Below are positions 6,401 through 56,700 of a DNA stretch of 64,000 nucleotides, in pieces. Position 1 is the first letter of the stretch. The number at the start of each line of letters is the position of its first letter. Source of the DNA: Terriglobia bacterium (GTDB lineage Bacteria > Acidobacteriota > Terriglobia > 20CM-2-55-15). The notes below the pieces were generated by a model. The model saw only the letters and a program-made list of their open reading frames with translations, did no database searches and had not been told where the DNA came from. The translations under genes and the position numbers were made by a program. Where the stretch lies: positions 990,045-1,054,044 of the forward strand of contig CBDAOY010000007.1 in assembly GCA_965198225.1 (NCBI GenBank), in the 5' to 3' direction.

Positions 6401-8004
6401 TCGCATCCGCCGCCGTACTGGGTTGAGAAAGGAGTCGCCGAAGGAGGGGTGGGAAAGTCGTCTGAGCAGGTCTGTCCCGTCACGAAGGGGCCGGTCGACT
6501 CGGAGCCGACGATGATTCCCAGACCATCCTCGCTGGACTGGCCCCCAAGGTAGACACCGTAGTCGAAGTCGTGACAGTCGCTGTATTGGATTCCGTTGAT
6601 GTTGCAGGAACTCTCGTTGAAGGGAGTGCTGATATCGAGCTTGACCACGAAGGCGTCCCGGGCAAGCAGCGGATTGTTCACGTCGATGGAGAGCGTGGTC
6701 AGTGCGGATTGGGCGTTGTCGGCAGGGAAGTCCGCCGAGTGGGTTGTGCCGGTAACAAAGACGGAGTTCACGGTGTTCGGTAAGAGCGAGGGTGTCACAG
6801 CCACGCCGAGGGCGAGGTCGTCGCGGCTGCCGCCCAGATAGGTGGAGTACTGGAGTTGCCCGCTGAAGGGCGCGAGCGCAAGCACAAAGCCGTCCAGATC
6901 GGTGCCTCCTAACTTGTTGGGGTCCAATCCCCGGTCAAAGGCGTCGGGAGTCGTGGGGAAGTCCGATGACCTGGTGTGACCTACTACGTACACCGTGCCC
7001 GAGGGCGCCGGGACGATTCCCCTCGCGGACTCGTCGCCTGTCCCTCCGAAGTAGACGGAATAGGCCAGGGCGCCGGAGCTGTCTATCTTGACCACGAAGC
7101 CGTCGTCTCCTGCCGCCGGCGGCACCTGGGTTGCCGGACCGGGCAGTGTGGCGCCCGAGGTGGTCGACCCTGCTACATAAACGTTCCCCTCGCCGTCGAT
7201 GGCGATGCCACGGGCTGAATCCTCGCCCATCCCGCCAAGGTAGCTGGAGTAGCCTAGCTCCAGCACCGGATCGATGACCAGAGTTTTGCTGTCATCGTAT
7301 GCGGCCAGTTGAAAACCGACGACCTGGGATTCTGGATTCAAGAGGTATCCGCCGGGGACCGTTTGCCGCCGACCGTCGATTTCCTGGTAGATGACGGGTT
7401 TTCGAAGTCGAACCTCACCGGTGGAGGTGTCGAGGACGAGGTCCCCGTTCGTGTCGATTTCGACTCTATCCGGACCCTCCAAGGAAACCTTGATGGAGTC
7501 GGGATCAGCCCCGGGCGCAACTATGAAGTCGTGCTCCCAGCGCCGTTGGTTGCCATAGTGAACGAGGTCGATCCCTGGATAGACATTCTGGTATCGGACC
7601 CTTGCGTAGGTTGGGAGGTTGGTGCGCCACTTCTCGGGGTCGCTTCCGATGAAGTAACTGCTCTTGCCTGGCAGCTCCTGGAGGCCGATGATAGCCGATC
7701 CGGAGTCGGCGCCGACGAGCCGCATCCGCACCGCACTTGCCGGGGTTTTGCCGGCGTCGCGCTCACGGAGCAGAAGAACCGCTTCTTCGGAAGTCAGGAA
7801 GAGCGTATAGCCGCTGCCTCGGGAAATGAACCGGACCTCTTCGTCCGCCTGGCCCTGGTTGGGCTCGAAGGCCATCGGTAATTGCACGAAGGTCGCCGGC
7901 AGGCTCTGGTCGACCTTTCCTTCACCCTGGCTGTTGGCCCCCCCGGGGGAAACCACGATTCCGAACAAAAGGCAGACCAAGAAGGCTTTCATCGCCGATC
8001 GCAT
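3403..8004 (-). CDS. secreted giant beta-propeller repeat protein (1533 aa) with SBBP repeats, YVTN repeats, an Ig/PKD-like region and a C-terminal (KSGKSD)n low-complexity tail
   Basis: It has a signal peptide (MKAFLVCLLFGIVVSPGGANSQ). SBBP-type repeats are repeated (YSTYLGGSGxDxGxGIAV...GxVYVxGxTxSxxFP). YVTN-type repeats are present (VHPDGTQVYATRREQKKVTRIDTETSE...). The tail is DDDDKSGKSDKSGKSNKSEESGKSGKSDKSEKSDKSKKSGKGGED. Confidence 0.85.
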   Translation of the reverse strand: MRSAMKAFLVCLLFGIVVSPGGANSQGEGKVDQSLPATFVQLPMAFEPNQGQADEEVRFISRGSGYTLFLTSEEAVLLLRERDAGKTPASAVRMRLVGADSGSAIIGLQELPGKSSYFIGSDPEKWRTNLPTYARVRYQNVYPGIDLVHYGNQRRWEHDFIVAPGADPDSIKVSLEGPDRVEIDTNGDLVLDTSTGEVRLRKPVIYQEIDGRRQTVPGGYLLNPESQVVGFQLAAYDDSKTLVIDPVLELGYSSYLGGMGEDSARGIAIDGEGNVYVAGSTTSGATLPGPATQVPPAAGDDGFVVKIDSSGALAYSVYFGGTGDESARGIVPAPSGTVYVVGHTRSSDFPTTPDAFDRGLDPNKLGGTDLDGFVLALAPFSGQLQYSTYLGGSRDDLALGVAVTPSLLPNTVNSVFVTGTTHSADFPADNAQSALTTLSIDVNNPLLARDAFVVKLDISTPFNESSCNINGIQYSDCHDFDYGVYLGGQSSEDGLGIIVGSESTGPFVTGQTCSDDFPTPPSATPFSTQYGGGCDAFLAELGTNNQGIARLEYATYLGGSSWDLARGISFSPWGIVVTGETISMDFPVSSSNFGFPGTYQETHGGGTYDVFVAALSAGNSSFVSCPIGQVQYNNCADLTYSTFLGGVGDDYGYAVAADPSGVYVTGQGCSTTAPMTGFPLVDPLPEDPVAHLHDGTLCDAFISKFNLSGTDLVYSTYLGGSGADRGSGIAVNPFGEVYVAGTTGSANFPQEGNTLQPNAGIGNDAFVAKITLSCTGGGGPLAYTGDGRIIDTANDCLLTETVPGALVPGLTDRAPGAVAVRPDGAEVYGLERDSLNNLQNVVVFDTATKQVHKVPIPVEDVVGPGPEALVVSPDGTKLFVVVHEDKNDNQGGNRSDIYVMDTETHGLTVLHSGKAAENFDGVAVHPDGTQVYATRREQKKVTRIDTETSEALDIVVGTQPSPVLVTPDGQWAYVGNTFANAKTVSVIGADRNTSEYGMKVKDISVGGVPSDLAVTPQPVDGHGHLVYVAMGPFGVAVIDTNVKDVVVPAVPGAFGSDVTVSPDGTKVYVASESVVQVIEVVDENGTVSNKVVGAIVGVGGRVTAIGPQDRDGDGIIDQVDTDQTFSDDFSDGISSGFIMIRADQHVTVWDAFGNGLFANARGGTEKAHIVACGQGVDLDQNDAVKFLCGSLTLEVLRGPVEVGFGADTFVSIPTGGIGKVTESPLGQFLVENLGNVALRVVDSDGNEIAAVAPGDTFGDEDLAGITADAGGPYEVDEGESIALNGTVTHAEGGDVSFLTLEWDTDSDGVFETSGASATFLAPSVGADTIVSAAFRACNSRSDCVDDTVEITIRDTQPEIFADFAAVAEIETGADGEFDLREAFTLGVASDGIDPSQEDVVLNIGVFELTLPAGSLEFRRKGGADIFEFEGEVAGIELELRIRELGPDAFDFRVEAEAVNLDSISNPVEVNLTIGNDSGEIRIQADIEGDDDDKSGKSDKSGKSNKSEESGKSGKSDKSEKSDKSKKSGKGGED

Positions 8005-8422: not shown

Positions 8423-9748
8423 TCAATTCTTCCAACTGTCGGCCCACAAAGGCAGGCGCAGCCTGGCCGCACAGCCTTGCCCCTCGCCCCGGTTCTCCAG
8501 TGTCAGGGTACCCTGATGCGCTTCTGCGATCTGTCGGCTCAAAACCAGCCCGATTCCCGAGCCGCCCTTCTTGGTGGTGAAGAAGGGGACGAACAGGTTG
8601 GAGGTGTTCGGCAGGCCCGGGCCTTCGTCTTCAACCCAGATGTGCAGGTGGCCGCCGGAGCGACTCCACCCCGTTCGCACATCACCTCCAGTTTCGAGAG
8701 ACGCGTCGACGGCATTCCGGACCAGGTTGATGAGGAGCTGCTCGATCTGTCCGCCGTCGGCTTCGATCGTGATCGGCGGACCTGGTATCAGGTTGACCGG
8801 CAGGCGCGTCTCCATTCCGACGACTCGACGTACCAGGGTGTCCACATCGACCTCTTCGGGTTTCGGTTGAGGTAGGCGTGCGAGCTTGGAATAGGACTCG
8901 ACGAACTGGATCAGGGAAGCGGATCGGGACGAGATCACCGAGAGACCGTGTTGGACGTCTTCCTCCCAGTCCGCCGGCCGCTGATCGCGCCCGAGCAGGC
9001 TCATGAGACTGCTCGCGATCGAGCTGATCGGTGTCAGGGAGTTGTTCAACTCGTGACCCAGAACGCGCACGATCCTCTGCCAGGTTCGCCTTTCCTCCTC
9101 GCGGAGCGTCCGGCTGAGATCGGACAGAACCAGCAGCTGGTGGGGAAGTCCACCCTGGCGAAAATTTGTCCGGCGGATCTCCCACCGGCCCCCGCCGCCC
9201 GGGAAACCGAACTCGACCAGCCGCGGCGTTTTGCCCTCCAGGCAATGTGCCAGACCCAGTTCGGCGGCGTTCGCGCCGAGCAGGCGTTCCCATGGTCTGT
9301 TCAGGAGGCGTTCGCCGGCACGGTTGACCAGCCGTAGCTTCTGGCCCTCGTCGAAGGAGAGTATCGCGACGTCGATCTCCTCCATGATCTTCTGCAAGAG
9401 CGCGGTTGCCTCGAGCGCGTCCATTCGCTGCCACCGGAGCGTGTCGGCGAGCGCGTTGATTTCTCGCGTCACATCTCCCAGCGCGTCGTCAATTCGGGCA
9501 CTGCTGCCACGGATCGAGTAGTCCCCCTCACGGAGCCCCGCGAGCAGGTTGGAAAGGGTCTGAAGGGGGAAGACCACTTTCTGCCTGGCGCCGAACGCCG
9601 CCCCTAACCAGACCACGAGGATCAACACCGACAGCGTCCACTGGACTTTCGCCGTGTAATCACTGCTCCAGAGGATAATCAGGGAGATGAGCGAGCCGGG
9701 GACCCCGGCGGTGAAGGCGATCCAGAATATGCGCTCTTCGTGTCGCAT
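8423..9748 (-). CDS. sensor histidine kinase (two N-terminal TM helices, HisKA, HATPase_c)
   Basis: The H-box is HELNNSLTPI and the G-boxes include GSGIGL. It is co-oriented with the NtrC-like gene. Confidence 0.85.
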   Translation of the reverse strand: MRHEERIFWIAFTAGVPGSLISLIILWSSDYTAKVQWTLSVLILVVWLGAAFGARQKVVFPLQTLSNLLAGLREGDYSIRGSSARIDDALGDVTREINALADTLRWQRMDALEATALLQKIMEEIDVAILSFDEGQKLRLVNRAGERLLNRPWERLLGANAAELGLAHCLEGKTPRLVEFGFPGGGGRWEIRRTNFRQGGLPHQLLVLSDLSRTLREEERRTWQRIVRVLGHELNNSLTPISSIASSLMSLLGRDQRPADWEEDVQHGLSVISSRSASLIQFVESYSKLARLPQPKPEEVDVDTLVRRVVGMETRLPVNLIPGPPITIEADGGQIEQLLINLVRNAVDASLETGGDVRTGWSRSGGHLHIWVEDEGPGLPNTSNLFVPFFTTKKGGSGIGLVLSRQIAEAHQGTLTLENRGEGQGCAARLRLPLWADSWKN

Positions 9749-10246
9749 GGCTCGTTTTAGTTACAAGTAGGCCGTTGTCCGTTATTGTGGCAAATGACTC
9801 GTAGCCGTAAGCTGATCGCTGATGGCCAACTGACCGCCGGCCGGCTGCAGGCCATAGCTATCACCGGCCGCATCGCCGCCACGTGCCACAACAACGGCCT
9901 ACGGATAACGACCTACATCACTCCCACCAACTCATCCTGGCCGGGGACCCGGCGGTGAAGGCAGTCCAGAATATGTAATCGTCGTGTCGCATGGTCCGTT
10001 TCGTTACAAGTAGGCCGTTATCCGTAGGCCGTTATTGTGGTAAATGACTCGTGGCCGGAAGCTGATCGCTGATGGCCGACTTACCCGCCGGCCGGCGGCA
10101 GTCTGGCCACGAGCTATCATCGACCGCTTAGCTGGGACGTGCCACAACAACGGCCTACGGATAACGGCCTACGGCCGCGTCAGCGGCCCAACGGCCTACG
10201 GATAACGACTCACGGCCGCGCCAGCGGCCCAACGGCCTACGCTCAA
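9749..10246. repeat. tandemly duplicated ~235-250 bp block. It carries REP/MITE-like inverted repeats of GTAGGCCGTTATCCGTAGGCCGTTATTGTGG and CCACAACAACGGCCTACGGATAACGGCCTAC, plus a degenerate second copy of the kinase 5' end.
   Basis: Block 9690-9920 aligns with 9941-10170 at about 85% identity. The second copy encodes a pseudo-start MRHDDYIFWTAFTAG.... The GGCCTACGGATAACG motif also occurs at 22297, 28721, 28782 and 28858. Confidence 0.7.
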
Positions 10247-16589: not shown

Positions 16590-17387
16590 CTACAGGCCAC
16601 TGGACCGGCGCAGCCGGATCGCTCCGTTCACTGTCTTGAGGCGGAGATCCCGTCCGCCGTTTCCGATCGTCCCGTTCAGCCGTCGGCTTCCGAAGCGTCC
16701 CGACACGGTCATCGGGAAATCGCTGGAAATTCCGCCGTTCAGAGTTTCGGCCCGGACGTCTGCGTTGGTGTTGTCTGGGAGTTCAACCGTGATGCGACCG
16801 TTGACGGTTTCGAAAGTCAGGTCGTCCTGCCAGTCGCTCCGTCCCATCGAAACATCGATCGATCCGTTCACGGTCTTTGCCTGAACCAGCCCGGTGGCCG
16901 ATACCTCGACCTGGCCGTTTACGGTGTAGGCCTCGACGTCACCGTCGATCGAGTTGGCCTCGACACCGCCGTTCACGTTGCGTCCGATGAAACGTACACC
17001 CGCCGGAACCCGGACCGTGAAGTCCACTTCCACATCGTTGTCGTGCGTGTTCATGCGGCCGTCTGTGCCGGGTCTGCAATCGTTGGCTCGATCAGAGTTC
17101 CGACTCGGGTATACCGCGCAGATCGTGACGCCGTCGTCGTGCTCTATCGTCTCGATCTGGACAGAGTCGACGTCGCTACGGCGCGAGCTCTTGTTTGCGA
17201 CGACCTGCACCTGATTGCCCGATGCGGATGACGCTTCGACCTTACCGTTGATACCTTTGATTTCGATCGCTTTGCCGGCTGCGATCGTTCCTTCCCATTC
17301 GAAGCGTTCCTGTGCGAACGCGGATGGAATGCCGATGGTGGTGGCCATTCCCAGGACCAGGGCGGTTCGAGTCAGTGTCTGGTACAT
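16590..17387 (-). CDS. DUF4097-family secreted beta-helix (putative adhesin-like) protein
   Basis: It has a signal peptide (MYQTLTRTALVLGMATTIGIPSAFA) with an AAGGAG RBS. VNGxIxV beta-helix repeats are present. Confidence 0.75.
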   Translation of the reverse strand: MYQTLTRTALVLGMATTIGIPSAFAQERFEWEGTIAAGKAIEIKGINGKVEASSASGNQVQVVANKSSRRSDVDSVQIETIEHDDGVTICAVYPSRNSDRANDCRPGTDGRMNTHDNDVEVDFTVRVPAGVRFIGRNVNGGVEANSIDGDVEAYTVNGQVEVSATGLVQAKTVNGSIDVSMGRSDWQDDLTFETVNGRITVELPDNTNADVRAETLNGGISSDFPMTVSGRFGSRRLNGTIGNGGRDLRLKTVNGAIRLRRSSGL

Positions 17388-23055: not shown

Positions 23056-23301
23056 CCAGGCCAGCTTCCAACCCAAGAAGGGGGCGGGCGTGACGCGCCC
23101 GCTTCTCCATCAAAGTTTTTGGGATCTTTCGGCAACATAGCGGTCTAATTGCAAACCGCGATATTGACTAATCCGCATTGCATGTTGTTCATTGGAGATT
23201 GCTTCACTTCAAATTTTCGGGAACAAATCTCCCGGGAGTTACCGGCCTTAGCGCTGATCCCGGAACTCCAAGTTTTTCGCTTCACTGGTACAGGCCACTA
23301 G

Positions 23302-25374
23302 ATGACTCGACGAGAGCACGTTGACCTGAACTATCCCGAGTCGAGACGTGTCGATCAGGTCGACGACTATCACGGGCACCCCGTGGCCGATCCCTACCGG
23401 TGGCTCGAAGACATGGATTCGGATGAAACACGCAGCTGGATCGCGGCGCAGAACGAAATCACCGAACAGTTTCTTGATCGGGTGCCCGGAAGGAGCGAGA
23501 TCCTCCAACGCGTGACGGAGCTGTGGAACTTCGAGCGATTCGGGGTTCCGATCAGAGAGGGAGGACGCTACTTCTACTTCCGTAACAGCGGCCTGGAGAA
23601 TCAGGCCGTCCTGTACACGATGGAACAACTGGATGGCGAACCGCGCGTCCTTTTGGATCCGAACACGATGTCGGTGGATGGCACGCTCGCACTTGTGGCA
23701 TACGCGCCCAGCCGTGATGGAAGGTTCCTGGCCTACAGCGTGTCCACCAGCGGGTCCGACTGGCAGCATATACTCGTCCGCGACGTGGCCGGCGGAGCCG
23801 ATCTTGAGGACCGTCTCGATTGGGTCAAATTCTCGGACATTTCATGGACCGCGGACCACGAAGGCTTCTTCTACAGTTGCTACGACGCCCCTTCCGGCGA
23901 CGAATTCGCCGGCGAAAATTATTTCCAGAAGCTCTACTATCACCAGCTTGGAACTTCCCAGTCCGCAGATCGTCTCGTTTACGACAATCCCGACGAGCAG
24001 GAGTGGGGGTTCCTGGGTCACGTGACCGAGGACGGCCGTTACCTGGTCATTCACATCCGCAAAGGCTCGGGACCCAAACACTGCGTCTATTTCAAAGATC
24101 TCGACGAATCCGACGCCATGGACGATTGCGGGATCGTCAAACTGATGGACGGATTCGATGCGCGCTATGAGTTTGTCGGCAACGCTCGAGACGAGTTCTG
24201 GTTCCTTACCGATCGTGACGCTCCCCGTGCGCGGCTCGTGGGGGTCGACCTGGGACGAAGCGATCCGTCCCAGTGGCGGGAGATCATCCCGGAGGGTGAT
24301 GCCACGCTCGAGGCGGTCGTCGCGGCCGGCGAAGGCTTCGTCGCCCGCTTTCTCGAACACGCTCGCAGTCGAGTGGAGCTGTACGGTAGGGACGGCGGGC
24401 ATGTCCGGGAGTTGGAACTCCCCGGCATCGGGTCCGTAGTGGGTTTCTTCGGTAAAGCCGGCGGCACCGAAGCGTTCTACGCGTTTACGGATTTCACCAG
24501 TGCGCCAACCATTTACCGGTACGATGTCGCGACGGGTAAGAACGAGGTTTTCCGGAGTCCTCAGATCGACGTCGTGGGGAGCCGGTTCGAAACCCGACAG
24601 GTCTTCTACCAGAGCAGCGACGGAACGACGGTTCCGATGTTTCTCGTCCACCGGACCGACCTGGAGCTGGACGGGAACAACCCGACCCTGCTCTACGGTT
24701 ACGGCGGCTTCAACATATCGATGACCCCGGCGTTCTCCGTGCGCAACCTTGCCTGGCTCGAGATGGGCGGGGTTTATGCGGTCGCAAACATCCGGGGTGG
24801 CGGCGAATACGGTGAGGAGTGGCACCAGGCCGGAATCCGCCGCAACAAGCAGAACGGGATCGATGATTTCATCGCCGCGGCCGAATGGCTGACATCGAAC
24901 CGCTACACGAGCCCCAACCGCCTCGCGATCCACGGTGGGAGCAACGGCGGAATGCTCGTCGGGGCGTGCATGACGCAGCGACCCGACCTTTTCGCGGCTG
25001 TCGTGTCGGCGGTCGGTGTGATGGACCTGCTGCGTTTCGACAAGTTCACGATCGGATGGGCATGGCGCTCTGATTACGGGTCGCCGGACGATCCGGACGA
25101 CTTCAACATCCTCCGTGCCTGTTCGCCGTACCACAATCTACGAGAAGGAACAGAATACCCGGCGACGATGATCACCACCGGCGACCACGACGACCGTGTC
25201 GTCCCCTGTCACAGTTTCAAGTTCGCGGCAGCACTGCAGTCGGCGCAAGCCGCCAGGAGCGCTGCGGTGATACGGATCGGGGTCTCCGCGGGCCACGGCA
25301 TGGGTAAGCCGACTTCGATGCAGATCGAGGAGGCCGCCGACGTCCTGACCTTCCTCAAGCACTCGGTCATGTGA
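23302..25374 (+). CDS. prolyl oligopeptidase (S9A family)
   Basis: It has the N-terminal beta-propeller and C-terminal GGSNGGML nucleophile elbow, D and H. Confidence 0.9.
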   Translation: MTRREHVDLNYPESRRVDQVDDYHGHPVADPYRWLEDMDSDETRSWIAAQNEITEQFLDRVPGRSEILQRVTELWNFERFGVPIREGGRYFYFRNSGLENQAVLYTMEQLDGEPRVLLDPNTMSVDGTLALVAYAPSRDGRFLAYSVSTSGSDWQHILVRDVAGGADLEDRLDWVKFSDISWTADHEGFFYSCYDAPSGDEFAGENYFQKLYYHQLGTSQSADRLVYDNPDEQEWGFLGHVTEDGRYLVIHIRKGSGPKHCVYFKDLDESDAMDDCGIVKLMDGFDARYEFVGNARDEFWFLTDRDAPRARLVGVDLGRSDPSQWREIIPEGDATLEAVVAAGEGFVARFLEHARSRVELYGRDGGHVRELELPGIGSVVGFFGKAGGTEAFYAFTDFTSAPTIYRYDVATGKNEVFRSPQIDVVGSRFETRQVFYQSSDGTTVPMFLVHRTDLELDGNNPTLLYGYGGFNISMTPAFSVRNLAWLEMGGVYAVANIRGGGEYGEEWHQAGIRRNKQNGIDDFIAAAEWLTSNRYTSPNRLAIHGGSNGGMLVGACMTQRPDLFAAVVSAVGVMDLLRFDKFTIGWAWRSDYGSPDDPDDFNILRACSPYHNLREGTEYPATMITTGDHDDRVVPCHSFKFAAALQSAQAARSAAVIRIGVSAGHGMGKPTSMQIEEAADVLTFLKHSVM

Positions 25375-25413: not shown

Positions 25414-25688
25414 CTAGTGACCTGTAACAGTGCTATCGGTACCAGCGTTCGGCGGAACGGCGTCGGATTCTAGGAGTGACGCCCGAGCCAATGCTGTTTC
25501 ATTGCGAGGGCGTTACGACACCGAAGACGGCGCCGTTCCGACGAACCCTTCGGGCCGATGGGGGTTGCGGGCGATCTCTTTGTCGGAAGCCGTCACCGAT
25601 GAAAGAGCATCGCTTTCCGTCTCCCTCCTCGACCTCGCCCGCAAGACCCATCGGCGATGGTGCCGATAGCACTGTTACAGGCCACTAG
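25414..25688. mobile_element. 275-bp MITE-like element, copy 1, with ~33-bp terminal inverted repeats CTAGTGRCCTGTAACAGTGCTATCGG
   Basis: The left TIR is at 25414-25447 and the right TIR at 25656-25688. The interior is highly self-complementary. A near-identical copy is at 34705-34979. Confidence 0.7.
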
Positions 25689-27671: not shown

Positions 27672-27683
27672 CGTGAGGCCCAA

Positions 27684-27735
27684 TGTCCAAAGTCCGAGGT
27701 TCAAAGTCCGAGGTCCAAAGTCCAAGGTCGAATGT
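27684..27735. repeat. tandem ~15-bp repeat (GTCCAAAGTCCGAGG, 3.5 copies) between oppA and oppB
   Basis: Seen directly in the sequence. Confidence 0.6.
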
Positions 27736-28712: not shown

Positions 28713-28898
28713 AGAAGTTATGCGTAGGCCGTTATCCGTTGTCGGAAGAGGAGCTACCAACTCACAACGACGTACCAACGGCCTACGGCCTACTGAACCG
28801 AGGAAGTTATGAGTAGTCAGCTGTCAGTAGTCAGTTTTGGGAAAGGGATGGCGTACCGCCCAACGGCCTACGGACAACGGCTTACGACTTATTGACGA
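28713..28898. repeat. intergenic REP/MITE-like repeats inside the opp operon (GTAGGCCGTTATCCG / CAACGGCCTACGG family plus two AGTAGTCAG units)
   Basis: The motifs are shared with 9749-10246 and 8365-8421. Confidence 0.6.
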
Positions 28899-29837
28899 AT
28901 GTCCCAGGTTACCGAAACCGAAGTTGTGGCCGGAACGTCCTTGTGGCGCGACGCATGGCGCCGCCTGCTTCGCAACAGGTTGGCCGTCATCGGCATGACT
29001 TTCGTCGCCTTGATCGTTCTCGCGTCGATCGTCGGCCCACCGATCATCGAGGCGACAACCGGTTTCACGTACGACTACATACCGGCTGATTCCTCGCAGA
29101 TTCGATCGTTCCCGCCATTCACGGCGCCTGACGGTTCCTTTTCCCTGACTCACCCGATGGGAACCGACGAGGCGGGGCGGGACATCCTCGCGAGAGTTCT
29201 GTTGGGCGGGCGAATCTCTCTCATGGTCGGAAGCATTTCGACGATCGTGTCCCTGCTCATCGGTGTGACATACGGGGCGACGGCCGGTTACGTGGGCGGC
29301 CGGGTCGATGACGGGATGATGCGCATCGTCGACGTGCTCTACGCGATTCCATACATGATGGTTGTGATCGTCCTGCTGGCTTTCTTCGGAGGTCAGTCGC
29401 CGCTGGGTCAGTTGTTTCTGTTGTTCTTCGCTCTCGGCGCCGTGTCGTGGCTGACGATGGCCCGAATCGTGCGGGGACAGGTGATCTCGTTGAAGAACCA
29501 GGAATTCGTCCTCGCCGCGCGCGCCGGGGGCGTGTCGACTCCAAAGATCATCTTCAGGCATCTCGTTCCGAACACGCTCGGACCGGTCGTCGTCTACGCG
29601 ACGTTAACGATCCCGTCCGTCATGCTGCTCGAGGCGTTCCTGTCTTTCCTGGGTCTCGGTGTCCAGGCTCCGCTCGCCTCGTGGGGGAGTCTCGCCGCGG
29701 ACGGCATCCGAAACATCGCCGTCTTCCCGTGGCAGCTGATCTTTCCCGGAGTGACGATGGCCGCGACGCTGTTCTCGTTGAACTTCATGGGTGACGGGCT
29801 CCGGGACGCCTTGGATCCGCAGATGCGAAAGATGTAA
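28899..29837 (+). CDS. ABC peptide transporter permease (OppC/DppC-like)
   Basis: It has a BPD_transp_1 membrane domain and an N-terminal OppC-type extension. Confidence 0.85.
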   Translation: MSQVTETEVVAGTSLWRDAWRRLLRNRLAVIGMTFVALIVLASIVGPPIIEATTGFTYDYIPADSSQIRSFPPFTAPDGSFSLTHPMGTDEAGRDILARVLLGGRISLMVGSISTIVSLLIGVTYGATAGYVGGRVDDGMMRIVDVLYAIPYMMVVIVLLAFFGGQSPLGQLFLLFFALGAVSWLTMARIVRGQVISLKNQEFVLAARAGGVSTPKIIFRHLVPNTLGPVVVYATLTIPSVMLLEAFLSFLGLGVQAPLASWGSLAADGIRNIAVFPWQLIFPGVTMAATLFSLNFMGDGLRDALDPQMRKM

Positions 29838-29978
29838 GCACGGATTACACGGATGGACTTACACATACAGGAGGAAGACAAGCCACGGATTGCACGGATT
29901 ACACGGACAGGAAGAAGCCCGTGGTCTGCATTCCGAAAAGACTACTCCTAATCCGTTAAATCCGTGTAATCCGTGGCT
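29838..29978. repeat. CACGGATTACACGGA repeat cluster (direct and inverted copies) between oppC and oppD
   Basis: Copies are at 29839-29855, 29884-29909 and 29951-29976. The flanking inverted repeats are GCCACGGATT / AATCCGTGGC. Confidence 0.6.
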
Positions 29979-29999
29979 TAGCAGTCTGAACATCAACGT

Positions 30000-32122: not shown

Positions 32123-32143
32123 GAAATTCCTGTCTGAAAAGTT

Positions 32144-32400
32144 TTGGGTAAGTAGACACCCGAGGACAGGGCTATACCCCTGTCCCCCTCACATTGGCTC
32201 TTTCACGGACTTTTCGCGTAGCGACCGGAAAACCCTCTGTGCCTCCGCGCCTTTGCGGTGAGATCGCCGCTCTGAAGAGTTCTGCGTAAGCAGACACCCG
32301 GGGACAGGGCTATACCCCTGTCCCCCTCACATTGGCTCTCTCACGGACATCCCGCGTAACGACAGGAAAACCCTCCGTGCCTCCGCGCCTCCGTGGTTAG
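32144..32400. repeat. two tandem ~139-bp repeat units in the convergent intergenic region. Each contains the palindrome GGGACAGGGCTATACCCCTGTCCCC.
   Basis: Unit A (32144-32282) aligns with unit B (32283-32400) at about 88% identity. Confidence 0.7.
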
Positions 32401-33783: not shown

Positions 33784-34683
33784 ATGCGTGTCTGTTACGG
33801 TCCCGGCTACACCATCCCTCTGCCGCACACCCATCCGTTTCCGATGGGCAAGTACGAGGCGCTCTACCGGATTCTGATCGAAGAGGGCTTGATCGTTCCC
33901 GCCGACGCGCACGATCCCGGCGAAGCGGATTGGAGCGACCTGGCCTTGGTGCATACCTACCAGTACCTCGATACGCTCCGCCGAGGCAGTCTCGACAGGG
34001 ATGCTGAACGGCGTCTGGGTCTGCCGTTTTCCGAAGTTCTTCTACGCCGCTCGCGCCTGGCCGTCCAGGGTACGATCGACGCCGGACAGTTTGCCCTCGA
34101 GGAAGGAATCGCAGCCAACCTGGCCGGCGGCACCCACCACGCGTTTCCGGGCCACGGTGAAGGCTACTGCCTGCTGAACGACGTCGCCGTCGCCGTGCGG
34201 GTCTTGAAACGCTCGAAGGCAATCGAGAACACCCTGGTGGTGGATCTGGACGTACATCACGGGAACGGCAGTGCCAGCATCTTTGCCGAGGACCCATCGA
34301 CCTTCACGTTGTCGATCCACGGCGCGAAGAATTACCCGTGGGTGAAACCTCCCTCCTCGATCGATGTGGCGCTTCCGGACGGGACCGGAGACGAAGAATA
34401 TGTCACAGCGCTCGTCAGCCACCTGGATACCGCGGTATCAGAGTCCTGCCCGGACCTGATCTTCTACCTGGCCGGCGTTGACGCCGCGGCCGGAGATCGT
34501 TTCGGCCGGCTCTCGCTCAGTCCGGAAGGCCTGCGTCGGAGGGACCGCTACGTTCTGGATGCTGCGAGACGTCACGGCATTCCGATCACGCTCCTGCTCT
34601 CGGGGGGGTATGCGAAAACGCCGCAGATGACTGCCGAGTTGCATGCCATCGTTCATCGTGAACGGTGCGCCGTCTACGGGTGA
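33784..34683 (+). CDS. histone deacetylase-superfamily protein (acetoin utilization/acetylpolyamine amidohydrolase-like)
   Basis: It has the HDAC motifs GGTHHAFPGHGEGYC and VVDLDVHHGNG. Confidence 0.8.
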   Translation: MRVCYGPGYTIPLPHTHPFPMGKYEALYRILIEEGLIVPADAHDPGEADWSDLALVHTYQYLDTLRRGSLDRDAERRLGLPFSEVLLRRSRLAVQGTIDAGQFALEEGIAANLAGGTHHAFPGHGEGYCLLNDVAVAVRVLKRSKAIENTLVVDLDVHHGNGSASIFAEDPSTFTLSIHGAKNYPWVKPPSSIDVALPDGTGDEEYVTALVSHLDTAVSESCPDLIFYLAGVDAAAGDRFGRLSLSPEGLRRRDRYVLDAARRHGIPITLLLSGGYAKTPQMTAELHAIVHRERCAVYG

Positions 34684-34704: not shown

Positions 34705-34979
34705 CTAGTGACCTGTAACAGTGCTATCGGTACCAGCGTTCGGCGGAACGGCGTCGGATTCTAGGAGTGACGCTCGAGCCAATGCTGTTTCATTGCGAGG
34801 GCGTTGCGACACCGAAGACGGCGCCGTTCCGCCGAACCCTTCGGGCCGATGGGGGTTGCGGGCGATCTCTTTGTCGGAAGCCGTCACCGATGAAAGAGCA
34901 TCGCTTTCCGTCTCCCTCCTCGACCTCGCCCGCAAGACCCATCGGCGATGGTGCCGATAGCACTGCTACAGGCCACTAG
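34705..34979. mobile_element. 275-bp MITE-like element, copy 2
   Basis: It is about 97% identical to 25414-25688, with the same TIRs. Confidence 0.7.
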
Positions 34980-35073
34980 GGTCCTTCTGGTTGTGGTACC
35001 TCGCCGTCCGCTTGCTATAATTGCGACTCTCCAGTCACCCAGAGAAGCGTATGCCGTTCGGCAGGTTGTCAGG

Positions 35074-36888
35074 ATGGAAGAAGAGAAGCTCGACGAAATC
35101 TTGAAAGGACAGGACGAAGCGCCCGTCGTCGAAGAGAAGCTGCGCACGCCGATGACGATTCTCTTCAGCGACATCAAGGGGTCGACCGCGTACTTCGAAC
35201 GGTATGGCGACGTCGAAGGGCTCGCGATGGTCCAGCGCCACAACGATCTCCTGTTTCCCTGCGTCGAGAACAACCACGGTCGGATCATCAAAACGATCGG
35301 CGATGCGATCATGGCGCTTTTCAACAATCCTGTTGATGCCATGAAGGCGGCAGCCGCCATGCAGCGCTCACTGTTCGACGACCGGAGCAACCGGTCGGAA
35401 TCGCAACGGGTCCACATCCGCATCGGCCTTCACACCGGCTTGGGATTGATGCAGGACAACGACGTGTTCGGCGACGTCGTCAACGCCTCGGCCAGGGTAC
35501 AGAGCCAGTCCGAACCCGACCAGATACTGATCACCGACAGCCTGCTGCATGCCGCCGAGACGGCCGGCATGCAGGTGGGTAAGCTCGGGCGGGCCCGGAT
35601 GAAGGGTAAGGATGAGCCGATCGACATCTACGCGGTGGCCTGGTCCGGGTGGGCGACCCAGCAGTTGATCGACGAGCTGCAGAGGAAGTTCGACGGTGCG
35701 TTGAGGGGGGCGAAAGAGAGACACAAGGCCCTGGAGGAAGAATTCGACGCCGCCCGCGACGGGTGGCGTGATGAACGGCGCCGTCTAAACGCCGAAGTCG
35801 AGCGCCTCGAGGAAGGTGCTCTCGACGCGATGGAAACGGCGCGAAACCAGGTATCCGAAGAGTTCCAGAAACAGCACCAGTTCAAGCAGGAAGCGACCGA
35901 CAAGGCCCGCGGGCAGGCCGAGGAGGATCTCAAAGGCACTCAGGAACGATTCGAGGCCGAGCGCGTCTCACTGAAGGCTCAGATCGCCAACCTGGAGGGG
36001 CGCCTCGTCGAAGCGATGGAGCGGAGCAACAACCCTGCGCGGGCTGCGACCCAGATTCGAGAACAGGTTCAAACGCGGTTGGACCAGGCCAAGAAGGAAT
36101 GGCAAGCCCAGTGGGAAGTCGAGCGGAAAAGGCTGGAAGCCGAGATCGAGAATGCAAAGACTGCCGGTCAGCCCAAGGATCCGATGGCCGAGGCGCGCCG
36201 GTTGATGATGGAGAAAATCAAGGCCAAACAGGAGGGCCGGGAGCCGGGCACACCGGGCGCCGAACTGGCCGCTGCGAAGGAAAAAGCGGAGAAAGAGCGT
36301 GACGAACTGCAGGCTCGCGTCGCGGGTCTCGAAAAAGAGGTCCAGAATGCCGAGGAAATAATCCGCCAGGAGGTTTACAACGACCTGCGTCACAAGTACG
36401 ACCAGAAGCTCGAGGCCGCGGATCGGATCAAGAAGCAACTTCAGCACGAAGTCCAGTCGCTCTCCGAGCAGCTCCAGGGCGAACGGGAGTCGCTTTCAGC
36501 GAGAATCAATCAGCTCGAAGCGGATGTGTCCGAGGCTGAGAACGCAGCCCGCGTCCAGGCGTCGGCTGAGGTCCGTTCCGACTACGAAAGCAAACTCGAC
36601 GACGCGGAGCGCGCGCGCTCCCGGCTGGAACGCCGCCGTCAGGAAGCCGTCGAAGAGATGGAACTGGAACGTTCCCGCCTGGAGAAACAGGTGAAGACCC
36701 TCGAGGCCGGCGTGCAGGAGGCCCGTGAAATGGCCTTCAAACGATCAAGCGATCCGACGATCGAGGAGCTCAACCGGTTGAGGCATCACCTGGAAGAAGA
36801 ATTTCGCGAGAAGACCGCTGCGTGGGAAGACGAGAAGCGCCACCTGCTGGAAAAGATTGCCCGCCTCGAAAACCCTGAAGGCGATTGA
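35074..36888 (+). CDS. class III adenylate/guanylate cyclase catalytic domain fused to a ~430-aa coiled-coil region
   Basis: It has the CHD motifs ILFSDIKGSTAY, GDAIMALF and GLHTG...GDVVN. The C-terminal region is heptad-rich (E/R/K/A/L). The start was moved to MEEEKL because the track start lies inside the MITE. Confidence 0.75.
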   Translation: MEEEKLDEILKGQDEAPVVEEKLRTPMTILFSDIKGSTAYFERYGDVEGLAMVQRHNDLLFPCVENNHGRIIKTIGDAIMALFNNPVDAMKAAAAMQRSLFDDRSNRSESQRVHIRIGLHTGLGLMQDNDVFGDVVNASARVQSQSEPDQILITDSLLHAAETAGMQVGKLGRARMKGKDEPIDIYAVAWSGWATQQLIDELQRKFDGALRGAKERHKALEEEFDAARDGWRDERRRLNAEVERLEEGALDAMETARNQVSEEFQKQHQFKQEATDKARGQAEEDLKGTQERFEAERVSLKAQIANLEGRLVEAMERSNNPARAATQIREQVQTRLDQAKKEWQAQWEVERKRLEAEIENAKTAGQPKDPMAEARRLMMEKIKAKQEGREPGTPGAELAAAKEKAEKERDELQARVAGLEKEVQNAEEIIRQEVYNDLRHKYDQKLEAADRIKKQLQHEVQSLSEQLQGERESLSARINQLEADVSEAENAARVQASAEVRSDYESKLDDAERARSRLERRRQEAVEEMELERSRLEKQVKTLEAGVQEAREMAFKRSSDPTIEELNRLRHHLEEEFREKTAAWEDEKRHLLEKIARLENPEGD

Positions 36889-38305: not shown

Positions 38306-38360
38306 GGTCTTCTTCCTTCGAGGCAGAATCGCCGCATTCTCCTCTAATCGTGACGAGTGA

Positions 38361-45254: not shown

Positions 45255-45588
45255 TTATCCCGGGCGTCGACGCATCTCTTCCCGGGTGATGAATCCATCA
45301 TCGTCCGCGTCGAGGCGGTCGAAGGCCTCAGTCGGTCGGGTCCACTCGTCACGAGAAACCTTGCCGTCGCCGTCTTCATCCATCTGGAGCATCGCGGCTC
45401 CCCGGCCACGTCCGCCTCTGCCCGGGCGGGAGTTCTGCATCTCTTCGAGAGTGATGAAGCCGTCGCCATCGGCGTCCATGGTCTCGAACATCTGCGCGGG
45501 ACCCGGAAACTCCTGCTGCGACACGCGTCCATCGCCATCGCTGTCGAGCCCCTGGAAACGGGCTTGAGGGTCTGCGCCTCTTCCGCCT
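45255..45588 (-). repeat. downstream copy of an exact ~310-bp tandem duplication. It encodes a now out-of-phase extra EF-hand segment (...DADDDGFITREEMRRRPG*).
   Basis: Region 45301-45590 is 100% identical to 45611-45900. At the junction the upstream copy carries 2-bp and 7-bp deletions, which create a TAG stop at 45589-45591. Confidence 0.7.
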
Positions 45589-46746
45589 CTATCCCGGGCG
45601 TCGCCATCTCTTCCCGAATCCATCATCGTCCGCGTCGAGGCGGTCGAAGGCCTCAGTCGGTCGGGTCCACTCGTCACGAGAAACCTTGCCGTCGCCGTCT
45701 TCATCCATCTGGAGCATCGCGGCTCCCCGGCCACGTCCGCCTCTGCCCGGGCGGGAGTTCTGCATCTCTTCGAGAGTGATGAAGCCGTCGCCATCGGCGT
45801 CCATGGTCTCGAACATCTGCGCGGGACCCGGAAACTCCTGCTGCGACACGCGTCCATCGCCATCGCTGTCGAGCCCCTGGAAACGGGCTTGAGGGTCTGC
45901 GCCTCTTCCGCCTCTGCCGCGGCCGCCCCCGAATTGCCGCTGGATTTCGTCACGAGCGAGGAGACCATCATCGTTTCGATCGAGCCGGTCGAACGTCTCG
46001 CCGTCGCCCGTCCACTCTTCCCGTGAGATTGTACCGTCCTCGTTCGTGTCCATGACGCCCATACCGCCCGCAGTCCCGGGCCTCTGCCCCGGCCGAGGGC
46101 GCATACCACGCATGCCGCGGCCGCGACGCTGTCCCTGTTCCTGTCCGTAGGCGGTGATCTCCCCTCTGAGAGCGACCTCGAGCGCTGCCCTGGCTTCGGG
46201 GACATCGAACCCGGCCGGCCCGGGGCGTCCCTTGAAGGCGATGGTGCCGTCGGAGCCCACGACATAGATCCGGTCGGGAAACGCGGCGTACGCATTCGCC
46301 GTCCGGTCGTCGATCTTGTCCAGAATGGTCGGCATCGAGATGTCCAAGGCGGTCGTACAGATGTTGGCTGCTTCCTGGCGCTGCTCGTCGGTTTTGGCTT
46401 GTTCGATCAGGATGCCGTCGATAACATTCGCCGCTCCGAGGTTGCCGTCGGTGGGATGCGCTTCTCGAATGTAGACGAAGAAGAAATTGGCGCGGTCCTT
46501 GTAAGCCTGGTACCAGTTTTCGATGTCCACGACATCGCGGCGGAACGGGCCTCAGGTATAGCTGGCGAAGATCAGCGCGGTCGGTCTGCCCGTCATCTCA
46601 GAAAGCGTAATCTTTTGCTTTCCGTCTTTTGTACTGAGCGTGAAATCAGGCGCCGTATCTCCAGGCGTGGGGCCGCCGCCTCGCCGCTGGGCCGTGGCAG
46701 GGCTCACCAGGACGAGGACCAATAACGCAGACGCGAATGTTCTCAT
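45589..46746 (-). CDS. selenoprotein: iodothyronine-deiodinase-like thioredoxin-fold domain (Sec encoded by UGA at 46552-46554) fused to a C-terminal EF-hand repeat array; secreted
   Basis: It has a signal peptide (MRTFASALLVLVLVSPATAQ) with a GGAGGA RBS. APDFTL...RPTALIFASYT-[TGA]-GPFRRD...FFFVYIREAHPTDG matches the deiodinase motifs FGSxT-U-PPF and FLxVYIxEAHPSDGW. The hairpin GAUGUC-GUGG-GACAUC lies 15 nt after the UGA. There are at least six DxDxDG EF-hand loops. Confidence 0.7.
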
Positions 46747-50795: not shown

Positions 50796-51380
50796 TTACG
50801 TCCCACAGTTCTGGTAGTCCGAGGCCATACACGTGCGCGCCCACTCAATGGCGCGGCTGATCTGGGCACGGGTCATTTCACGTTCAAGGTTGCCCCGCGA
50901 CTCCTCGGGCCCAACGCCGGCGACGCTGACCCTCCCATTGGCGCTGGCGATATTGAACCACATGTGCGCGAGCACGTCGTCCTCGATGCCGCCCAAGCCG
51001 TTGTAGTACATCAACCCGAGGTTGAACTGCGCGCTCGCGTGCCCCTGCTCGGCCGCCATGCGGTACCATCGCGCCGCTTCCGCATCGTCTTCGATGACAC
51101 CCTCGCCGTGGGCATACATGGTTCCGAGATTGAATTGCGCACGCGCGTCCCCCTGCTCGGCCGCTATGCGGAACCACCGCATTGCTTCACGGTCATCCTC
51201 CATGGCGGCCTCGTCATCGTCGTAGGTGCTCCCGAGGCTGTCCGGCGTATCCGCGTTCCCCTGCTCGTCTTCGGCCTGAAAGCGTCCTGGTTCGTCCTGC
51301 GCCGGAACACATGCCGCGGCCAGCAGCCAGGAGCCGCAGAGCAGTGTCATCGCGATCCATCGGTTACGGTGTTTCTTCAC
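50796..51380 (-). CDS. Sel1-repeat (SLR) lipoprotein
   Basis: The lipobox is LLAAAC. There are three repeats of AxxWYRxAAEQGxAxAQFNLGxMY. Confidence 0.8.
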   Translation of the reverse strand: MKKHRNRWIAMTLLCGSWLLAAACVPAQDEPGRFQAEDEQGNADTPDSLGSTYDDDEAAMEDDREAMRWFRIAAEQGDARAQFNLGTMYAHGEGVIEDDAEAARWYRMAAEQGHASAQFNLGLMYYNGLGGIEDDVLAHMWFNIASANGRVSVAGVGPEESRGNLEREMTRAQISRAIEWARTCMASDYQNCGT

Positions 51381-53751: not shown

Positions 53752-56700
53752 TCTGATTTCAGAACTCGGGGGAGAAATGATCCATGGGGATAAGAACATG
53801 CCCAACAATGGCGGCACGCGGGTACCGCTGATAGTCAGCGTTCCAGGAGGTGAGGGGGGACGGGTGTTCGACGACCTGATCGACTTCACCGACTTTCTCC
53901 CGACTCTGGCTGATGCGGCAGGTCTTACGATTCCTGACGTCAATATGCTGGACGGCGTGAGTTTTTGGGACAGGCTTCAAGGCCGAACCGGCCAACCGCG
54001 GGAATGGATATATACCTATTACTTCCCACGTCCGTTCGCCGATAGGTTCGACAATCCGCAACGTCATCCAGAGGCGTCGTATGTCCGAGACAAGCGGTAC
54101 CAGCTCTACGGAACAGGAGAGTTCTTCGACATTTCCGTAGACCCTCACCAAGTGCATCCGTTGCCGAGTGACGATGAAGAGTCCAGCGCCGCCCGTACCA
54201 AGCTGCAAGCGGTTCTCGACTCGATGCCGGGGAGAGGTGAGGAGATTTACCCATATTTGATAGGAACTGTCCCGGACTCTGAGCCGCGCCCGCGATGGCG
54301 GCCCGTCCTGTCGAAAGCAACTGTGAACGGCGGCCAATTGACGCTCACTTACGCCGGAATTCTGGACTCAAGAGAAGCGCCTCCCGCAGATTCCTTCATT
54401 GTGAACGTTGATGGTTCCGAGCGTGCGGTCTCCACAGTTTCGATAAGCAAAACAGCGGTTACGCTTACACTCGCTTCGGCGGTTACAGTTGGCCAGACGG
54501 TGACGTTGAATTACACGCCGGGAACGAATGCGATTCAGCACGCGAACAGGCCATTCGGGCACAAAGCGGCACCCCTGGTTCGCCAAGGGGTGACGAACAA
54601 CACTGTGGACACGACGGCGCCGGCGGTGTTGTCGATCACGAGCGACGCGACGCACCCGACGAAGAACGCTTTCACGGTGACGATAACCTTTTCGGAGGAG
54701 GTGAGGGGACTCACGGCGGGGGAGATCGCGGTCACCAATGGCACGGGCTCGAACTTTGCGGGCACAGGCGCGAGCTACATGCTCGACATCGAACCCAGCG
54801 ACGATATCGAAGCCGACGTGACGGTCCGGGTTCCGGCCGATGCGGCGATGGACGCCGCGAACCTCGGCAACATCGAGGGGATCGAGACCTTCGCGGTGGA
54901 CACCCAGGCGCCGGCGGTGTTGTCGATCACGAGCGACGCGACACACCCGACGAAGGATGCTTTCAGGGTGACGATCACCTTTTCGGAGGCGGTGACGGAG
55001 CTCACGTCGCAGGATATCGCGGTCATGAACGGAGTGGGCTCGAACTTCGCGGGCACGGACGCGCGCTACACGCTCGACATCGAGCCCAGCGCCAATACCG
55101 AAGACGATGTGACGGTCCGGGTTCGGGCCAACGCGGCGGTGGACGGCGTGAACATCGGCAACGTCGAGGGGATCGAAACCTTTGCGGTGGACACCCAGGT
55201 GCCGAGGGTGTTGTCGATCACAAGCGACGCGGCGCACCCGACGAAGGATACTTTCACGGTAACGATCACCTTTTCGGAAGAGGTGACGGGGCTGACGGCG
55301 AGTGAGATCGTGGTCAGCAATGGCCGTGGCTCGAACTTCGCGGGCACGGGCGCACGCTACACGCTCGACATCGCTCCGAACGCCAACCTTGAAGCCGATG
55401 TGACGGTCCGGGTTCGAGCCAACGCGGCGGTGGACGGCGCGAACAACAGCCACGTCGACGAGGGCGAGACCTTCGCTGTGGACACGCGGGCACCGGTGTT
55501 GATGAGCGCTGCGGTGGATGGCGACACGCTGACGCTGAGCTATGGGGAGGCGCTGGGCAACCCGACACCGGAGCCGGGCGATTTCACGATGAATGTGGAG
55601 AGCGCTGGGCGGAGCGTTTCCAGGGTGGCGGTGAGCGGAAGAGCGGTGACTTTGACGCTTGCCTCGGCCGTGGCGCATGGCGAGACGGTGAGAGTGAGCT
55701 ACAGCCCGGGGACGAACCCGATCCAGGACGCGGTGGGCAACCAGGCTCTGGGACTGAGCAACGCGTCGGCCACCAACACTACGGATGCACCCAACACGGA
55801 TCCGATGATCACGAGTCCGGGGCCGTTCAATGTCACTGAGAATCAAGCGCGGGTGACCCGGCTGATGGCGGCCGACGCCGACCCGGGGGACGAGGTCACC
55901 GGCTATACGCTTGTCGGCGGAGCCGATCGGGCCCAGTTCACGGTCGGTGAGGATACCGGAGATCTGGGCTTCCGGGCGGTTCCGAACTTTGAAGCGCCCA
56001 CGGATGCCTTCAGTAACGATCCGCCAAGTGGGGCAGGAGACAACGAGTACATCGTGGTGGTCCAGGTCAGCAGCGGGGCAGGAACGCGGGTGCGGACGGC
56101 GGAACAGACGATTCGCGTGCGGGTGAGTGACGTGGAGGAGCTTCCAGCGGCGCCGGAGGAGCCGACTTTTCCGAGGGCGACGCCGGACAGCCTGACGGTG
56201 GCGTGGACGGAGCCGGACAACACCGGGCCGCCCATCACCGGCTATGACGTGCAATACCGGGAAGGCGTCAGCGGCGGCTTCACGGATGCGCCGCACTCCG
56301 GGACGGCCCAAACCACAACGCTCATGGGGTTGAGCGAGGGCACGGCCTACCAGGTGCAGGTGCGGGCGAGGAACGCGGAAGGAACAGGTGACTGGTCGGA
56401 GCCGGGCGAAGGACGGACCGTGGCCCCGCTGAGGGTTCGGATGACGCCGGAGCTGGAGCCGCCGGTGGAGGGCCCGTTCTCGGTGAGGTTCAGCTTTTCG
56501 GAGACGGTGACGGGTTTCAGCGGAAGCGACATCGAGACGGGTCAGGACCTTGCCTGCATGGACGATCAGAACAACCCGGTGTTCTGCAACCCCGGCTTTG
56601 CGGCATTCGAGACCACGGATAGCCGGGTCTTCACCACCCGCGTGACCCCGAGGACCGGCGGGGTGGCCAATAACTACAAGCTCACGCTCACGGTGCGTGC

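Follow-up and report, generated by a model that had tools for sequence, protein, structure and literature searches.

A multicopy MITE family of Terriglobia genomes with IS630-family termini

The DNA analysed here (the window, a stretch of 64 kb from a Terriglobia genome) was found by a repeat search to carry a two-copy direct repeat, with both copies (A and B) in the same orientation and 9.3 kb apart. Copy A starts 40 bp past the stop of a prolyl-oligopeptidase (POP) gene (23302-25374) and is followed downstream by a family-5 solute-binding protein gene. Copy B, which begins 22 bp past the stop of a histone-deacetylase-family gene (33784-34683), is followed by an adenylate/guanylate cyclase gene; the ORF of the latter has its first ATG (34948) within the right-hand repeat of copy B. 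The first-pass annotation had placed both copies immediately downstream of the POP and HDAC genes and the second across the annotated cyclase start, as we also find. The parts of the two copies are the following.

25414-25688, plus strand: MITE copy A, with the element proper at 25417-25685 (269 bp, GTGACC...GGCCAC)
25415-25416 and 25686-25687: TA target duplication of copy A; the outer C25414 and G25688 complete the CTAG target
25414-25447, no strand assigned: left terminal inverted repeat of copy A, partner of 25655-25688
25655-25688, plus strand: right terminal inverted repeat of copy A
25446-25546 (element positions 33-133), no strand assigned: inner hairpin H1, in which GTTCGGCGGAACGGCGTCG pairs with GACGGCGCCGTTCCGACGAAC
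25554-25649 (element positions 141-236), no strand assigned: inner hairpin H2, the best conserved part between sister families with different ends
34705-34979, plus strand: MITE copy B, with the element proper at 34708-34976
34706-34707 and 34977-34978: TA duplication of copy B, which is inserted in CTAG (GCATC-CTAG-GGTCC)
34705-34738 and 34946-34979: terminal inverted repeat arms of copy B

When the two 275-bp units were aligned, 271 of the 275 positions were identical (98.5%) with four mismatches and no gaps, and the similarity stopped sharply at the outer CTAG on both sides. Two copies of this length at these positions had been described before, at an identity of ~97% that is superseded by the measured value; likewise, the terminal inverted repeats reported at ~33 bp are present and were measured by the repeat search at 34 nt with 88 to 91% complementarity. 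The element termini read TA-GTGRCCTGTAAC..., and a 26-mer of the ends, CTAGTGRCCTGTARCAGTGCTATCGG, occurred exactly four times in the window, once per element end, compared with no occurrence in 100 shuffles. The strong self-complementarity that had been noticed in the interior was borne out by folding: the 275-bp unit reached −167.7 kcal/mol as RNA versus −100.2 ± 5.2 kcal/mol in shuffled sequences (z-score −12.9), and similar values were obtained for the opposite strand and with DNA parameters. In the predicted fold the two ends pair into one long stem that encloses the hairpins H1 and H2, forming a three-way junction.

Several other repeats were observed in the window. A tandem duplication of ~325 to 334 bp at 45256-45915, 100% identical over 300 nt, lies in a repetitive coding region; the syntenic locus of a relative (L012) has a single copy of this unit, and carries a MITE of a sister family (family B, below) at the position that corresponds to the left edge of the duplication. 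Another repeat family, with ~250-bp units and 31-nt inverted repeats (GTAGGCCGTTATCCGTAGGCCGTTATTGTGG / CCACAACAACGGCCTACGGATAACGGCCTAC), was found at 9699-10229 and 28713-28901, the related motif being 18.7 kb away. Diverged tandem or dispersed direct repeats of 108 to 300 nt (71 to 88% identity) at 54605-55504, 57408-58804, 50977-51192, and 32133-32400 are probably repeated protein domains. In addition, a 14-bp tandem repeat (CCGAGGTCCAAAGT-like) follows directly after the solute-binding protein gene (27680-27735), and a 28-nt inverted repeat (AAGCCACGGATTGCACGGATTACACGGA) is located upstream of ABC ATPase genes (29880-29979).

The target site was deduced from the bases that border the copies. 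Element ends abutted a TA at 132 of 149 ends, and a C lay outside the TA in 118 of these 132. The outermost bases were found to vary independently on the two sides (GTA/.../TAA, TTA/.../TAG, and CTA/.../TAT), and for this reason the duplication is TA alone and a duplication of 3 or 4 bp is excluded. It follows that the element begins with the G next to the left TA and ends with the C next to the right TA, that the element proper is 269 bp in length, and that the outer C-TA...TA-G consists of target DNA and its duplication. The tetranucleotide CTAG occurs at 24 sites in the window, compared with 82 expected from dinucleotides (first-order Markov) or 226 expected from base composition, and the MITE copies and the relic described below account for 7 of the 24; given this scarcity, the preference for CTAG is a strong one. 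IS630 prefers TA inside CTAG (PMC2170065 and references therein), and for ISY100 the inverted repeats are the sole requirement in cis and the TA is duplicated (PMC2170065). A TA duplication combined with a CTAG preference is characteristic of IS630. The REP, BIME, and REPIN class of repeats (palindromes of 20 to 40 bp that have a GTAG/CGTC head and lack a target duplication) was considered and ruled out by the 269-bp unit, the 34-nt repeats, and the TA duplication.

A species-representative genome collection was scanned with a 19-mer from the repeat arm, and at least 76 loci were detected. Among the matches listed, all except one were in three Terriglobia MAGs, overwhelmingly CBDAPB01; the remaining match, labeled 'Bacteroidetes' (L025), was rejected as a chance 19-mer within a low-GC coding region. 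By BLAST, the related Terriglobia MAGs contain at least 58 full copies that are 96 to 99.6% identical to copy A of the window, and the same loci also hold shortened copies and diverged relatives at 72 to 85% identity to copy A. A scan of viral and phage contigs returned no copies. In an alignment of 60 copies (the two of the window and 58 from the MAGs) the mean pairwise identity was 96.9%, and the window copies were 99.3% and 98.5% identical to the consensus, with a single difference from it that both share. Thus, the first-pass proposal of a mobile MITE family stands, with its copy number, its TA duplication, and the empty and filled orthologous sites described below. The same proposal had named the finding of just two copies without target duplications as the sign of a segmental duplication, and what was found is at least 76 loci with TA at 132 of 149 ends. 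That the two copies arose by a segmental duplication, or are an artefact of assembly, would fit the presence of just two full copies in the window, which share their orientation and are 9.3 kb apart; however, their similarity ends exactly at CTAG on both sides, dozens of copies occupy unrelated contexts in other assemblies, and both TA duplications and empty sites are present, such that we regard this explanation as already refuted.

Comparison with the relatives also located the window genome with respect to its neighbors. Three of the fetched loci were syntenic with the window at 87 to 96% nucleotide identity, and the host DNA therefore differs by 4 to 13% (~9%); the window comes from a relative of the MAG CBDAPB01 and not from this MAG itself. 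The consensus of the element differs at 1 of 275 positions between the genome of the window and the MAG. Together with insertion sites that differ between the genomes, this suggests that the family spread recently in both lineages from a nearly identical master; the simplest route for this would be transfer among related Terriglobia. In these uncultured soil Acidobacteria the family is unnamed, and it seems to be new to the literature, a search of which found no description of it; 'novel' here denotes an unnamed family of a familiar kind and not a new kind of element.

Synteny further allowed empty and filled sites to be compared, and the insertion polymorphism between the window and the syntenic relative was found to run in both directions. 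The site of copy A is empty in the relative locus L049, where the sequence ...CCGC-TA-CCACGC... has a single TA, versus ...CCAC-TA-[269 bp]-TA-GCACGC... in the window. Conversely, two sites that are filled in the relative are empty in the window, as listed here.

38355-38356, no strand assigned: empty site, GAC-GA-GTGATCAC; L021:6849-7123 has a MITE of a second sister family (family C) and one extra dinucleotide
45255-45258, no strand assigned: empty site TTAT; L012:7358-7631 carries a family-B MITE there

The filled site in L021 reads GAC-TA-[element]-TA-GTGATCAC, and the junction at 45255-45258 is less clean, its flanks having diverged. The filled sites exceeded the empty ones in length by one element and 2 bp. 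Each empty site is one substitution off the expected sequence, in host DNA that is 6 to 13% diverged at these places.

A short remnant of the ends, and a possible second one, were found elsewhere in the window.

23285-23301, plus strand: MITE relic, C-TG-G-TACAGGCCAC-TA-G, directly before the POP start codon
16590-16603, plus strand: candidate for a further relic, CTACAGGCCACTGG, which overlaps the stop codon of the DUF4097 gene on the minus strand

The first of these contains the 12-mer ACAGGCCACTAG alone and exact at 23290-23301, where it abuts the ATG of POP at 23302. The first-pass annotation had pointed to a solo terminal motif at this start codon, and comparison with the relative explains it: an intact copy of 274 bp occupies the POP site in L049 (5395-5668), with flanks TTGCTTCAC-TA...TA-GATGACTCG that are the same as in the window. 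Since the relative has a full copy at the same site, the motif at 23285-23301 (a 15-nt relic) is the deletion relic of a complete copy. A second solo motif had been reported at the DUF4097 stop. Its position is corrected here to 16592-16603 (ACAGGCCACTGG, with one mismatch and with TACAGGCCAC as the core it has in common with the first relic), and 0.09 such hits are expected per window; this motif is possibly a second relic, though taken alone it is within reach of chance. Collapsed palindromes of 19 to 21 bp, TA-GTGACCTGTAACAGGTCAC-TA, were observed in the relatives, and their structure fits a deletion between the short CTGT(A/T)ACAG repeats of both arms, a mechanism that we infer from the sequences. 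Perfect or near-perfect palindromes of 19 to 43 bp, made of two element termini head to head and flanked by TA, were also seen at L013:4876-4898, L010:2806-2828, L011:~1279-1303, and L176:139-181; these are probably MITEs collapsed by deletion between the arms. Separately, MITE copies were repeatedly seen adjoining the ends of IS427-group and IS5/IS1182-like ISs and of other MITEs (L011:6270-7202, L054:4618-5689, L062:499-1200, L001:5205-6859, L043:5410-7061, L065, and L034), presumably because CTAG is regenerated at the borders of these other elements.

Both copies contain an ORF.

25430-25669 (copy A) and 34721-34960 (copy B), plus strand: 79-codon ORF, non-coding

This ORF was broken in 22 of the 60 copies, and across them substitutions numbered 84, 99, and 54 at codon positions 1, 2, and 3, respectively. 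A third position that is the least variable is the opposite of coding constraint, and the ORF is therefore non-coding, in agreement with the initial judgement; it was without a Pfam match. At 269 bp and with no coding capacity, the element falls within the usual bounds of a MITE (less than ~600 bp, non-coding). With genes called on the basis of GC3, a procedure that reproduces the genes of the window, 54 of the 60 copies were intergenic. The gene pairs around the copies (32 tandem, 10 convergent, and 10 divergent) followed the background distribution (236, 71, and 63, respectively), and the orientation relative to flanking genes was unbiased (19 versus 13). Searches for known functional signals gave (i) no match in Rfam 15 at E ≤ 1 over 15 kb, and for the element alone just chance matches of 13 to 15 bits versus thresholds of 40 to 168; and (ii) no sigma-70 consensus and no intrinsic-terminator consensus in promoter and terminator scans of the element. 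Intergenic placement of this kind, with no bias in orientation or context, is the behavior of selfish DNA tolerated between genes. For the cyclase gene downstream of copy B, the in-frame ATG at 35074 (MEEEKLDE...) appears more plausible as the true start than the ATG at 34948, and ~42 codons of the listed ORF (34948-35074) are probably untranslated.

To find autonomous elements with the same ends, a metagenome collection was scanned for the terminal 15 nt with the next bases chosen such that the MITE of the window was excluded, and at least 120 loci were detected. Among the matches listed, 15 loci were inverted end pairs 1,098 to 1,130 bp apart, of which 13 enclose a single intact ORF of 351 to 360 codons; these ISs of ~1,100 bp share the termini CTAGTG(G/A)CCTGTAAC. 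The loci of this clade include L077, L085, L088, L092, L098, L115, L142, L164, L166, L172, L174, L188, and L192, as well as L198, a Caballeronia plasmid; the ends of this cultured example are CTAGTGGACTGTAAC... and ...GTTACGGCCCACTAG. NCBIfam and Pfam were run on two of the transposases (L077 and L142), and both matched NF033545 'IS630 family transposase' at 242 to 260 bits (cut-off 100) as well as the Pfam domains DDE_3 and HTH_23/28/29/32. In the protein database at least 8,000 clusters matched the transposases of the clade at E ≤ 1e-60; 81 of the best 120 of these end in VTGH, and the two organism-named clusters among the matches listed, from an Opitutaceae MAG and a Burkholderiaceae MAG, are both designated 'IS630 family transposase'.

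The ends of these ISs were found to be part of the gene that they carry. In every intact IS of this set the transposase ORF reaches the very end of the element: the final 12 nt of the right repeat are its last four codons (V-T-G-H), and the duplicated TA together with the G of the CTAG target gives its TAG stop codon. Encoding of the ORF end in the right repeat accounts for the strong conservation of these 12 nt in thousands of elements. The TAG stop arises from the CTAG target in the way reported for IS870, in which CTAG likewise supplies the stop codon (Fournier et al. 1993, as cited in PMC13630536). In the reading frame of the parental transposase, the MITE encodes G-D-G-A-D-S-T-V-T-G-H-stop at its right end and GTDSTVTGH at its left end, and by blastx the MITE sequence GADSTVTGH aligned with the C-terminus GADSVVTGH of the L077 transposase. 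The closest IS ends among the matches listed agree with the MITE at 18 of 18 terminal nt (L197) and at 32 of 40 (L166), and the best candidate by C-terminus among the matches listed (P0083) has the first 18 nt alone in common with it. The MITE shares its terminal repeats with autonomous IS630-family elements, and, read from these alignments, its ends are the tail of an IS630-family transposase gene, of which ~9 C-terminal codons survive inside the repeat. The interior of the MITE had no detectable similarity to the ISs of the clade, as blastx against the transposases returned nothing beyond the terminal nine codons; simple internal deletion of such an IS is therefore at most a possible origin of the element.

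The partner IS was sought in several ways. A tblastn search of the 64-kb window and of 608 kb from relatives detected no transposase of the clade, the lone IS630-like gene in the sequence of the relatives (L009:6031-7061) being 40% identical, frameshifted, and of different ends; the IS630-like element around it in the Terriglobia MAG (L009:5978-7128) has the ends CTAGTGTAGTCCGCC / CTAGTGGTCCCCGTC and a transposase frame split near 6591-6615. Among the metagenome and protein matches listed, none was an autonomous element carrying the full 34-bp repeat, and the at least 76 loci scanned had no inverted end pairs 0.3 to 4 kb apart that enclose a transposase. Two other sources of candidates were set aside: clustering of multicopy ORFs in the Terriglobia loci yielded just IS5/IS1182-, IS427-, IS256-, and IS4-type ISs with unrelated ends, and the ORFs beside solo ends proved to be housekeeping genes. 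One of these IS types was weighed as the mobilizing partner. The relative has a multicopy IS of ~850 bp of the IS427 group, with an A8 frameshift site, which is also inserted in CTAG, has an end (GGACGTGTTAACACTA) that loosely resembles GTGACCTGTAACAGTG, and is adjoined by MITE copies, and a transposase of this IS5-family group (PIF/Harbinger-like) could have taken the place of an IS630-family enzyme. Its resemblance to the MITE, however, needs two gaps (~12 of 16), as opposed to IS630-family ISs that match 15 to 18 terminal nt exactly and 32 of 40 overall; the MITE end encodes the C-terminus of the IS630 clade; and CTAG sites regenerated at IS ends account for the adjacency. We consider mobilization by the IS427 group to be very improbable, and IS630-family transposases to be the far better match for the MITE ends.

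The related MAG was found to contain two sister families of MITEs (B and C) that are homologous to the family of the window (A) over the whole length. Family B, of which the sample contains at least 11 full copies, has the ends CTAGCAGCCCGTGGCAGAAG and a length of ~274 bp; family C has the ends GTGGCCTGTAACGGAGA. Their loci are as follows.

L013:2135-2408, L010:2167-2437, L012:7358-7631, and at least eight more: family B
L001:5205-5482, L021:6849-7123, and L033:5992-6269: family C

Families A and B were 45 to 48% identical in the ends, 61% in H1, and 70% in H2; B and C were 81% identical in H2 and 42 to 48% in the ends; and A and C were 85 to 88% identical in the ends. These differing identities of ends and H2 indicate that the families exchanged modules, with H2 the best kept. 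In an RNAalifold analysis of the three related lineages the three-way architecture was retained, and double compensatory changes were seen in 45 of the 90 consensus pairs, some of them in H1 and some in H2. As a separate observation, the family-B MITE at L020:5087-6794 and L068:65-1772 is interrupted by an insertion of ~1.4 kb with ORFs of 318 and 247 codons.

Such changes could reflect a functional interior or, equally, DNA-level maintenance of a palindrome together with few independent lineages. According to the first possibility, the element would be more than neutral selfish DNA: its structured interior (the three-way junction, and chiefly the ~100-nt H2) would be a functional cargo that, as an RNA or DNA signal, affects neighboring genes or transposition. 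Homology of the sister families over their whole length, the 70 to 81% identity of H2 between families whose ends are just 42 to 48% identical, the 45 of 90 compensated pairs with both inner hairpins included, and window copies that are 98.5 to 99.3% identical to the consensus of a genome otherwise ~9% diverged are all consistent with it. On the other side, the copies are unbiased in orientation and context relative to genes, and they lack an Rfam match as well as a promoter or terminator consensus; DNA-level processes can preserve the symmetry of palindromes, such that compensatory changes are no proof of selection; and the covariation rests on three related lineages only. We therefore hold a cargo function to be unlikely. 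If it were true, the H2 module would be a signal carried around Terriglobia genomes, and between species, by several IS630-type MITE lineages, which would explain the ~99.6% identity of the consensus between genomes ~9% apart. The reading of the element as a MITE derived from, and mobilized in trans by, an IS630-family IS is the one that we prefer.

Elements of this kind have been known since RUP and IS630-Spn1 in bacteria and Stowaway in plants (PMC2229807, PMC2170065). RUP of pneumococcus, which is mobilized by IS630-Spn1, is likewise a bacterial MITE whose repeats match an IS630-family IS and which inserts at TA (PMC2229807); it too is intergenic and multicopy, with highly similar copies that are often in or next to other ISs (PMC2229807), and it has stop codons in all frames (PMC2229807). 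RUP differs in its length of 107 bp, its 9-bp repeats, and its Firmicute host, whereas the element of the window is 269 bp with 32- to 34-nt repeats and two conserved inner hairpins, resides in Terriglobia, and has a partner IS that was not found within the 64-kb window or 608 kb of relatives. Unlike IS630, ISY100, and IS870, the window element is without a transposase gene. The Stowaway MITEs of plants, which are derived from Tc1/mariner, are likewise short and non-autonomous with a TA duplication, and are cross-mobilized by mariner-like transposases via common terminal repeats (Feschotte et al. 2005, cited in PMC2170065); they differ in being eukaryotic and in having an unrelated sequence and unrelated partner transposases. 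The Correia/NEMIS elements of Neisseria are also MITEs with TA at their termini, and their transcripts form long hairpins (PMC2229807); they are ~100 to 150 bp in length with repeats of 24 to 26 bp (PMC2229807). No partner IS is known for Correia elements, however, and they carry IHF sites and promoters, none of which were found in the window element.

A family of elements, its copy number, the TA duplication and CTAG preference, the empty and filled sites, the IS630-family termini, and the lack of coding capacity are all demonstrated here, and from these sequence features we estimate a probability of about 0.9 that both repeats are MITE copies derived from, and mobilized in trans by, an IS of the IS630/Tc1-mariner family (IS870-like). 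By analogy with this family, a transposase would bind the 24- to 34-bp terminal inverted repeats via its N-terminal helix-turn-helix domains and would excise the 269-bp element by double-strand cuts, as expected for cut-and-paste transposition. Insertion would then occur at a TA dinucleotide, with strong preference for 5′-CTAG-3′, and would duplicate the TA. Copies survive almost solely between genes, and deletion between the repeat arms probably reduces them to short remnants of their ends, as at the POP start codon.

For the annotation of these genomes the consequences are practical. The MITE copies create spurious ORFs of 70 to 79 codons and lengthen neighboring ORFs, as with the cyclase start at 34948 in copy B, and element ends sit directly on start and stop codons; genes in Terriglobia MAGs are therefore called better once the elements are recognized. 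Assemblies also break at the near-identical 275-bp copies, of which there are dozens, and the copies are usable as markers of insertion polymorphism among closely related uncultured Acidobacteria. The exchange of modules between MITE families and the transfer of elements between species are testable but modest questions. Overall, the family adds a clean bacterial example of the relationship that leads from IS630/IS870 elements to MITEs, one in which the end of the MITE is the literal tail of a transposase gene.
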